From positions 62,001 through 126,000 of the forward strand of contig CAXHJY010000842.1 of assembly GCA_964016885.1 (NCBI GenBank): a stretch of DNA of 64,000 nt. The letters run 5' to 3'. The notes under the pieces are model-generated. The model did no database searches, was not told the DNA's origin, and saw nothing but the letters and a program-made list of their open reading frames with translations. Made by a program: the position numbers and the translations under genes. Below, in pieces: positions 38,693-40,138 of the stretch. Position 1 is the first letter of the stretch, and each line of letters starts with the position of its first letter. The stretch comes from Eledone cirrhosa. Lineage: Eukaryota.

Positions 38693-38842
38693 AATGAAGC
38701 AGTTCTAGGCCTGTAGAAGCTCCTCTATATTAAAACTTACAAATGTAAGCTATCGCCGTATTTTGACTAAAGAAATTAAAGAAAATTATTTAGCCTGATA
38801 GTGGGGTTAAGAACCCTTGGAGAAATGGAAAAAGATAAGTAT

Positions 38843-38913
38843 TGACGTACATGGGAGTCGAACCCACATCTTTGGTTATCCAGACCACTGTGCTACCATT
38901 ACACCAACACACC
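38843..38913 (-). tRNA. tRNA-like cloverleaf (GGA in anticodon position), inverted copy
   Basis: GGTGTGT TG GTGT AATGGTA GCAC A GTGGT CTGGATA ACCAA AGAT GTGGG TTCGACT CCCAT GTACGTC A. Confidence 0.6.
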
Positions 38914-39098
38914 ACCCGTCTTTTTCCATTCGAATTAGAAGCTATCAGGCTAAATAATTTCCTTTAATTTCTTTAGTCAAAATACGGCGATAGCTTACAT
39001 TTATAATTTCAAACCCGCTCGCTGTTTCGAAAATATTCTTACTTGACATTTACAGTTGCTAAGATTATAGCTTCTAATTCGAATGGAAAAAGACGGGT

Positions 39099-39169
39099 GA
39101 TGTGTTGGTGTAATGGTAGCACAGTGGTCTGGATAACCAAATATGTGGATTCGACTTCCATGTACGTCA
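39099..39169 (+). tRNA. tRNA-like cloverleaf (GGA, short variable loop; probably not a decoding tRNA)
   Basis: All four arms pair; A box TGGTGTAATGG, T loop TTCGACT, TTTTT at 39179-39183. Confidence 0.6.
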
Positions 39170-40138
39170 ATACTCATCTTTTTCCATTTCTCCGAGGGTT
39201 CTTAACCCCACTATCATGCTAAATAATTTTCTTTAATTTCTTTAGTCAAAATATGGCGATAGCTTACATTTATAATTTATATATATATATATATAATTTG
39301 TGTATATACACTCACACAAAAATGGAGGAGGTATAAGACGAAGGCCAAATAAAAAAACCAAACGAATTGTTGAAAATGAAAACAGAAATGTTAGCAACGA
39401 CAATAACAATAGCGACAGCATTGACAACAATAGCAACAATAAGAGACAAGTTTGTCACGTGCACACATGCTGTGCCTCGTTGTGGTGTTTTTGTTTTGTT
39501 TGTCTTTGGAAGAGTGTAGACTATAGACATGCGCAACAACAATGACACTGAAGCAACAACAACAACAACAATGACACTGAAGCAACAACAACAACAATGT
39601 CCCTGAAGCAACAACAACAACAATAAAAATAGAGATGGCTTTGGTACTGATGAGTTACAATAGACCACGTGAATGTGTGTTGAATGGTGTGTGTCTATAT
39701 ATACATACATGTGTATATGTGTGTGTATGTGCCAGTGTGTGTGTCTGTATATGTGTGTGAATATATGAAGAGGGATTGTGTGTGTGTGTCTACACACACA
39801 CATGCATATGTGTATAGTAGAAGTCAACAGCGTATAGGAATTTTCAAAAGATGCAACAGTAATATGTAGCCTCCACGTAGTCGCTAGATATAGCAGCCAA
39901 ATATCCTCCAACTTACATCCCACGGTCTTAAAAGAGCCACATAAGTTAATGTGATCATAGATACTATCTAGATAAAAATAAAAGAAAGGAATAGCACGGA
40001 TGGAAAGTATTTCAATTACAAGCTTGTTTCATTAGAAACTGACCTGTGGCTAAACAGAAACGAGCCCATGAGGAAAGCTCCGATGTGGTCGCCCAGCTTG
40101 TTAATAATGGCAGTCAAATCTCTCAAATTAGTCTACCA

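Follow-up and report, generated by a model that had tools for sequence, protein, structure and literature searches.

A tRNA-Gln-headed, hammerhead-less repeat family with PLE-type insertion marks in the genome of Eledone cirrhosa

We present a computational analysis of a non-coding repeat family of Eledone cirrhosa, one copy of which lies in the window (the whole 64,000-nt stretch of DNA that was analysed). The reading preferred here, with a probability of roughly 0.63, is that of a family headed by a tRNA-Gln-derived unit and lacking a hammerhead, which would be driven by Pol III from its head and copied in trans into (TA)n by the machinery of a Penelope-like element (PLE). Mobilisation by PLE machinery as such is regarded as very probable on the strength of its insertion marks, and the tRNA-like unit probably serves as the Pol III promoter, as judged from sequence.

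Layout, insertion marks and extent of the family

Positions are given in window coordinates and in q numbering, where q1 is window position 39010 (q = position - 39009), such that the monomer spans q1-269 and the cloverleaf q90-160. The features of the window copy are as follows.

38740..38945, minus strand: inverted 5'-truncated arm, q58 to about q263, with its outer end joined to the repeat at 38603-38738
38843..38913, minus strand: tRNA-Gln-derived cloverleaf of the inverted arm, A and B boxes intact
38942..39009, plus strand: partial upstream monomer (q202-269), a pseudo-LTR-like direct repeat
38984..39025, plus strand: stem H5, 38984-38989 paired with 39020-39025, around putative RT start site 1
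39010..39278, plus strand: full 269-nt monomer, subfamily A
39010..39046, plus strand: PLE-type 'tail' segment, q1-37, in which other copies have their second 3'-end site at q32-37 (compare PMC8557442, PMC11167929)
39058..39071, plus strand: hairpin H6, stem constant and loop variable, downstream of the tail end
39082..39098, plus strand: purine strand of the flanking duplex, with GGG at 39095-39097
39099..39169, plus strand: tRNA-Gln-derived cloverleaf, A box 39106-39116, B box 39148-39158, A58 at 39154
39158..39163, plus strand: T-stem hot spot (q149-154), where most genomic copies are 5'-truncated
39172..39188, plus strand: pyrimidine strand of the duplex, T5 run at 39179-39183
39196..39247, plus strand: hairpins H3 (39196-39208) and H4 (39217-39247), whose stems persist across subfamilies while their loops vary
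39274..39278, plus strand: 3' end of the window copy at end site 1 (q264-269), tail absent
39279..39295, no strand: (TA)n target

The upstream inverted copy of the original prediction is borne out by inverted arms of 215 nt with 95% identity (38731-38945 and 39067-39281), and the inverted arm overlaps the partial upstream monomer by 4 nt at their junction (38942-38945). The 68-nt direct repeat is likewise present (38942-39009 and 39211-39278, 96% identity, spacing 269), but the description of it as terminal does not hold, as it is a 5'-truncated upstream monomer whose length varies between loci. Similarly, the expected (TA)n flank is found directly after 39278, whereas the left end joins another repeat (38603-38738). 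The internal 71-nt cloverleaf is called as a tRNA in both arms by ARAGORN (39098-39170 on the plus strand, 38842-38914 on the minus strand) as well as by Rfam (44.7 and 47.6 bits, the gathering score being 29). The duplex of about 16 bp that had been proposed to prolong the acceptor stem and to hold a T5 run pairs at 16 of 17 positions (39082-39098 with 39172-39188) and forms in the predicted fold, for which z is -2.4 over a 121-nt segment and only -1.1 over the whole monomer.

Several other repeats accompany the element in the window. Directly upstream, two further repeats embedded in (TA)n occupy 38303-38738: one contains a variant hammerhead core at about 38410-38432, and the other, a palindromic repeat at 38603-38738 joined to the left arm of the element, weakly matches a repeat in a GIY-YIG locus (L232). 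A hammerhead-bearing element at 8131-8965 has the same inverted and tandem layout with a monomer of ~468 nt and a tail of ~50 nt, its tail end being faintly like that of subfamily C. The repeat at 37905-38010 recurs in the flanks of many fetched loci; it presumably resembles an octopus tRNA-derived SINE.

Searches of the 3.0 Gb assembly returned ~2,070 candidate loci for the monomer, and exact 25-mers from the 3' segment matched 1,986 times for subfamily A and 2,927 times for B and C, giving at least 4,900 matches over three subfamilies with none for the reversed-pattern controls. The element is thus not single-copy, and the genome-wide copy search that had been proposed as a check shows the tandem or inverted layout and the (TA)n insertion to hold across the family. 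Head-to-head units measure 260-278 nt in A (mostly 269-272), 259-262 nt in B and 271-291 nt in C (mostly 289-291), and the subfamilies differ by ~15% outside the promoter core. Contigs of three other organisms, from three other studies, align to the element at 80% or more. The family has also seeded a satellite of ~250 kb, in which subfamily C forms 290-bp units at C28:19.455-19.705 Mb (~850 units if continuous); four sampled stretches, 39 kb of the ~250 kb, consisted of uninterrupted monomers throughout. Of 70 satellite units scored, 14 have exchanged G-C for C-G in the D-stem as a linked change, with 2 single-sided mismatches, which we regard as one event spread by descent, possibly templated.

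Insertion anatomy was analysed in 84 loci derived from the first 100 subfamily-A pattern matches on contig C1 in positional order. All 84 carry (TA)4 at an outer end, as against 33% of random window intervals, and 57 of them have arms on both strands, that is, an inverted, 5'-truncated copy. The 3' ends of 144 arms fall predominantly on two sites ~35 nt apart, 53 at q264-269 and 59 at q32-37, and the tail is longer in subfamily C, at about 55-60 nt. Partial tandems are seen in 12 of 124 arms (>300 nt), with up to 10 monomers at one locus, and long tandem arrays exist in the family.

Partial tandems, inverted 5'-truncated copies, an optional tail of 30-40 bp and a bias for (TA)n are the marks outlined for EN+ PLEs by Craig et al. 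(PMC8557442), and for PAc the tail has been equated with the distance between two internal RT starts, the RNA downstream of both being required (Frangieh et al., PMC11167929). Because the marks of the element match the former and its two 3' ends match the two RT starts of the latter, the strand bearing the tRNA is taken as the sense strand. The PLE architecture of the original prediction is therefore strongly supported by the family-wide (TA)n, the inverted arms, the two 3' ends and the absence of a hammerhead, and by analogy with these systems the element is likely trans-mobilised by the reverse transcriptase-endonuclease of a PLE.

ORFs that pair an RT with GIY-YIG at the C-terminus and end in (TA)n are present in this genome, and a Pfam scan of four such proteins recovered both domains in three. 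Since a match of the tail to an autonomous PLE had been proposed as a check, 50 GIY-YIG loci, drawn from about 10,600 candidates, were compared with the element, and none shared its sequence by BLAST (E<0.5) or nhmmer; inspection of the 3' UTRs of PLE loci revealed no partner either. A 22-nt AT-rich match to one PLE locus (E 0.32) was judged to be due to chance. The GIY-YIG motif was detected in 17 of 20 long-ORF loci, C-terminal in all 17, and no Naiad was seen among these 20, which form a biased sample. Long PLE ORFs with a C-terminal GIY-YIG motif occur in L288-L307 (1,096 aa in L288, 938 aa in L289), and several PLE families of this set have 3' UTRs either devoid of a canonical hammerhead core or with degenerate ones.

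Origin and conservation of the tRNA-like unit

The D-arm of the cloverleaf is shared with genomic tRNA-Gln genes, to which the overall identity is 46/73 (63%) and that of the best window 42/60, above the SINEBase threshold of at least 60% tRNA identity over at least 60 nt. The tRNA-Ser identity of the original prediction was rejected on this comparison, made with tRNAs that have this D-arm: the D-arm is of Gln type, the variable loop is short, and anticodon-loop positions 33-34 vary between subfamilies, so that the unit does not present itself as a functional tRNA-Ser. The family is a source of many false tRNA-Ser annotation calls, 77 of 101 subfamily-A copies being called by ARAGORN. One Gln gene type at C1:168.2 Mb has a leader and a trailer with T-run in common with the element, which suggests from sequence that a whole tRNA-Gln gene was captured and that the T5 at 39179-39183 is likely the ancestral terminator of that gene. 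A tandem cluster of tRNA-Gln genes and pseudogenes lies at C1:168.21-168.28 Mb (L260-L281).

Conservation is concentrated in the promoter-bearing part of the unit. Across 24 of the 36 head-to-head units, the 56-nt D/anticodon/T core shows 0-1 majority differences between subfamilies, and the 178-206 nt outside the head show 28-30 (Fisher p 0.001-0.005), although this could partly reflect a recent head swap. By contrast, the 7-bp acceptor stem with intact 1:72 that characterises mascRNA-like units is kept in A and B, where position -1 also pairs with +73, and is broken in C, where 43-44 of 47 copies have T.C at 1:72 and G.G at 2:71. The kept part is hence that of a promoter core, not that of a tRNA used in decoding, nor that of a strict substrate of RNase P/Z. 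Besides this core, the 5' ends at the head described below and the scarcity of other T4 runs on the sense strand, where T-runs drop sharply at T4 (p about 0.03), point to the internal Pol III promoter that had been predicted, a role which the unit probably fulfils.

Evidence from covariation is more limited. The compensatory T-stem pair (39149/39157) that had been put forward is a real double change in the window, but it is a singleton and was rejected as a sign of selection: the 101 subfamily-A cloverleaves have G-C in 82, A.C in 11 and A-T in a single one, A-T also being the pair of the window copy. As the A-T pair is that rare and both of its positions damage the B box of the plus-strand cloverleaf, the change is attributed to B-box decay. 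The flanking duplex varies only on its purine strand, by A/G changes opposite U and one C/U change, so that pairing is kept with little evidential weight. Without prompting, RNAalifold recovered part of the duplex together with H4, H5 and H6; the sole double-sided change between subfamilies is in H5, C-G in A as against U-A in B and C. In the named structure 92.9% of the cells pair, but 36 of 500 shuffles attained its covariation score, which is not clearly above them. The covariation check thus yields one double change, a few one-sided changes and a kept duplex, over three related subfamilies.

An Rfam scan (E<=10) of natural tandem copies from subfamilies A and C returned no hammerhead or other ribozyme family, and the CYGANGA core was absent from both strands of five units of A, B and C. 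A hidden hammerhead was accordingly rejected, in agreement with the lack of a hammerhead core noted at the outset, and the hammerhead that each monomer of retrozymes and Sm-alpha carries is missing here. Naiad PLEs are described as devoid of canonical hammerheads (PMC8557442), and hammerhead cleavage was dispensable for PAc insertion in vitro (PMC11167929); a substitute for the ribozyme may therefore be needless. It is probably not required, with the tRNA acting as promoter.

Copy ends, proposed mechanism and alternative readings

The 5' ends of the copies fall on two regions, of which the first is the head of the tRNA. In the position-ordered A sample, 8 of 29 arms begin at q84-92 where 1.2 were expected; hand counts gave 19 head-ended rows out of 100 in one sample and 11 out of 100 for subfamily C, whereas the cluster is weak in the position-ordered B+C sample (2/28). 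Its modes are q85-86 (the GGG) and q89-90, the latter with ~8 of the 19 head-ended rows by hand count, and the A box lies at +12 relative to a start at the GGG, a spacing which is SINE-like. The notion of an internal cloverleaf in place of a 5' SINE head was not upheld by this clustering: the RNA appears to start at the tRNA, so that with a circularly permuted monomer 'internal' is only a matter of phase. Yet of the arms extending to the head, ~70-90% continue beyond it, and this crossing is mostly scarless, with one deletion among ~250 covering alignments, such that ligation or jump scars are not enriched.

The second region is the T-arm, where 58 of 93 arm passages into q159 end at q143-159 as against 5.7 expected, with a peak at q150-151. 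The same was found in 54 of 90 passages in a B+C sample (79 loci given, some overlapping, with B and C pooled and some C copies labelled B), and a break at 39159-39160 is seen in the contigs of two other organisms as well. At these stops, some junctions are joined directly to (TA)n and others are palindromic inversions; they hence represent independent events. A58 is located at q145. TRMT6/61A deposits m1A in a GUUCRA loop, and the truncation that this mark causes is imprecise (10.1101/202747). An m1A58 stop at q146 followed by trimming to microhomology fits the pattern, and a block by the folded arm fits it equally; the sharp truncation could thus be a genomic record of a tRNA modification. 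Misincorporation at A58 as a signature of m1A was rejected, there being no excess among copies that had passed A58 (6/181). Minor repeated 5' ends in B+C at q116 (39125; 2 arms, one base after G26) and q123 (39132; 3 arms, anticodon loop) are too few to interpret, and lie at sites where other tRNA modifications would stop RT.

The release of monomers by RNase Z that had been proposed found no support, as the discriminator side has no end peak in the A and B+C samples (in A, 3 ends at q160-162 as against 46 at q149-155) and subfamily C has the acceptor mismatches given above. Within one insertion, monomers share rare variants ~10-fold more than random pairs do, implying that the arms of an insertion tend to share one source.

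In the preferred reading, transcription by Pol III would begin at the GGG (39095); a fraction of the transcripts would pass the first T5 and terminate at that of the next monomer, giving an RNA of ~1.3 units with the tRNA repeated at both ends. By analogy with PAc, the two fixed 3' ends would be internal RT start sites, and stem H5 together with the conserved block downstream of the tail would form an RT handle, hairpin H6 being a candidate part of the RT-binding site. Having bound on the downstream side of the tail, the PLE protein would begin copying at either site, with insertion into (TA)n on one strand or on both. About 60% of the arms that reach the tRNA stop in the T-arm and leave promoterless copies; the block may be m1A58 or the folded T-arm, and trimming of 4-8 nt to the nearest microhomology would follow. 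cDNAs that reach the RNA 5' end would join the target or switch seamlessly to the repeated tRNA, tandem copies may alternatively come from longer read-through RNAs, and only tandem copies could seed the next round.

The weak point of this reading is the retained T5, together with the seamless run-on past the head. All three subfamilies retain an intact T5 right after the tRNA, and since real tRNA-Gln genes in this genome end at T4-T7 runs, the majority of Pol III transcripts would be expected to terminate short of the RT start sites; nor is the run-on of most arms predicted by a simple leaky-terminator linear RNA. Template switching across the repeated tRNA, an RNase P-cut ligated circle and long tandem read-through would each fit, the first being reminiscent of Cassandra, in which the repeated small-RNA part holds both the start and the stop of the RNA (PMC10886601).

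The circle defines an alternative that we consider unlikely. RNase P would cut the 1.3-unit Pol III transcript at each tRNA +1 (q90), the second purine strand would pair with the first trailer, and the resulting nicked helix would be sealed by a 5'-phosphate/3'-OH ligase into a circle round which the PLE RT would roll. The element would then be a ribozyme-free retrozyme in which the tRNA mimic is both Pol III promoter and processing signal, the duplex splints the RNase P-cut circle and a Penelope RT copies it, which retains the nuclease idea of the original prediction without RNase Z; if true, a host m1A58 would stand fossilised as an RT stop in thousands of genomic copies. Folding of natural 1.3-unit RNAs pairs the second leader with the first trailer at a probability of ~0.7 in B and ~1 in C, and in unit-length RNAs the helix puts the 3' end beside the 5' end. 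Leader-trailer pairing hinders RNase P. The q89/90 ends agree with a cut at q90, although a Pol III start at q86 trimmed to TA microhomology gives the same pattern, and the sharing of rare variants, expected of a circle, fits multimers as well. Scarless crossing of the head and the retained T5 would both be explained, and retrozymes do use circles (PMC7229834), but read-through of the first T5 would still be required, the acceptor end varies to the same degree as the spacer, in contrast to a constant promoter core, and subfamily C is mismatched at 1:72 and 2:71 whereas A and B pair -1 with +73. Switching or read-through is favoured over the circle because the acceptor end is not conserved.

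Less probable still is that the tRNA is passive cargo of an ordinary non-autonomous PLE templated by Pol II read-through RNAs from tandem loci, the captured tRNA-Gln gene with its terminator yielding only a short, dead-end Pol III RNA. An intact T5, a T-arm block that loses ~60% of the cDNAs, the passage of most arms beyond the head, the long tandem arrays and the Gln leader and trailer suggestive of whole-gene capture would all suit such a history. It leaves unaccounted, however, the excess of 5' ends at the head, a place with no structure expected to block RT, the promoter core kept across subfamilies ~15% different elsewhere and the sharp drop of sense-strand T-runs at T4; moreover, a useless and costly block would be lost.

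Lastly, an origin as an ordinary LINE-mobilised SINE or tRNA pseudogene that underwent local DNA-level duplication and inversion within unstable (TA)n tracts, which the tRNA-derived head above the 60% threshold and the DNA-level expansion of one subfamily into a satellite might recall and which the original prediction had itself named as its refutation, is highly improbable and already largely refuted by the anatomy of the 84 loci, with two fixed 3' ends, a non-repetitive tail, head-to-head inversions in 57 independent loci, tandem monomers in register and no simple-repeat tail of its own.

Relation to known systems

LINEs have their known Pol III-driven parasites in the SINEs, and LTR elements have theirs in TRIMp3, while the nearest cases for PLEs carry hammerheads and have a partner that is only proposed. 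A literature search, with Repbase, Dfam and most subscription papers outside its scope, returned no description of a tRNA-headed, hammerhead-less PLE parasite, and a repeat annotation of Octopus vulgaris, in passages of PMC13282606, lists many unclassified SINE families without describing this layout.

Tandem monomers of 259-291 nt place the element inside the 150-400-nt tandem range of the retrozyme and Sm-alpha type. Schistosoma Sm-alpha and Sj-alpha are similarly short and tandem, apparently transcribed by Pol III, and require at least two copies to propagate, but they carry a monomer-freeing hammerhead which the element lacks (PMC6765202); the element differs further in keeping a whole cloverleaf, a flanking duplex, the T5, and direct PLE marks in the form of tail and inversion. 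Metazoan non-LTR retrozymes, for which PLEs are the proposed mobilising partner, resemble it in their AT-rich monomers of ~300 nt, dimers to multimers and non-autonomy, and differ in having a type I hammerhead where the element has a probable tRNA-derived promoter (PMC7229834).

With the EN+ PLEs, namely Neptune, Naiad, Poseidon PAc and the non-autonomous Chlamys MRC1, the element shares partial tandems, inverted truncated copies, the tail and (TA)n (PMC8557442, PMC11167929). Compared with these as described, it has no ORF, a tRNA-derived head and a longer tail in subfamily C (~55-60 nt), and it matches the sequence of no PLE tested.

tRNA-derived SINEs are likewise short, non-autonomous and present in thousands of copies, with an A/B-box head at the inferred 5' end (PMC3531059). 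By the criteria given in SINEBase, the element agrees in length and in exceeding 100 copies, but, though dispersed, it occurs in partial tandems and inversions, lacks a simple-repeat tail and bears PLE instead of LINE insertion marks, besides the T5 after its head (PMC3531059). Helenus, Ajax and Cassandra (TRIMp3) offer a parallel in which a non-LINE parasite has a small-RNA-derived Pol III promoter in its repeated end; they are described with LTRs, PBS, PPT and target-site duplications of 4-5 bp (PMC10886601), a layout not seen in the element, whose direct repeats vary in length, which has no distinct internal region and which ends in (TA)n.

Overall, the family provides genomic evidence for the copying of a tRNA-headed, ribozyme-less RNA by PLE machinery and allows it to be asked whether hammerheads matter at all for PLEs. 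A natural substrate of 270 nt with a conserved stem at the RT start further offers a probe of how a PLE RT recognises RNA in trans. The element is best placed as a non-autonomous PLE-type variant near Schistosoma Sm-alpha and the retrozymes, working like a SINE for PLE machinery or, equivalently, like a retrozyme or Sm-alpha without the ribozyme.
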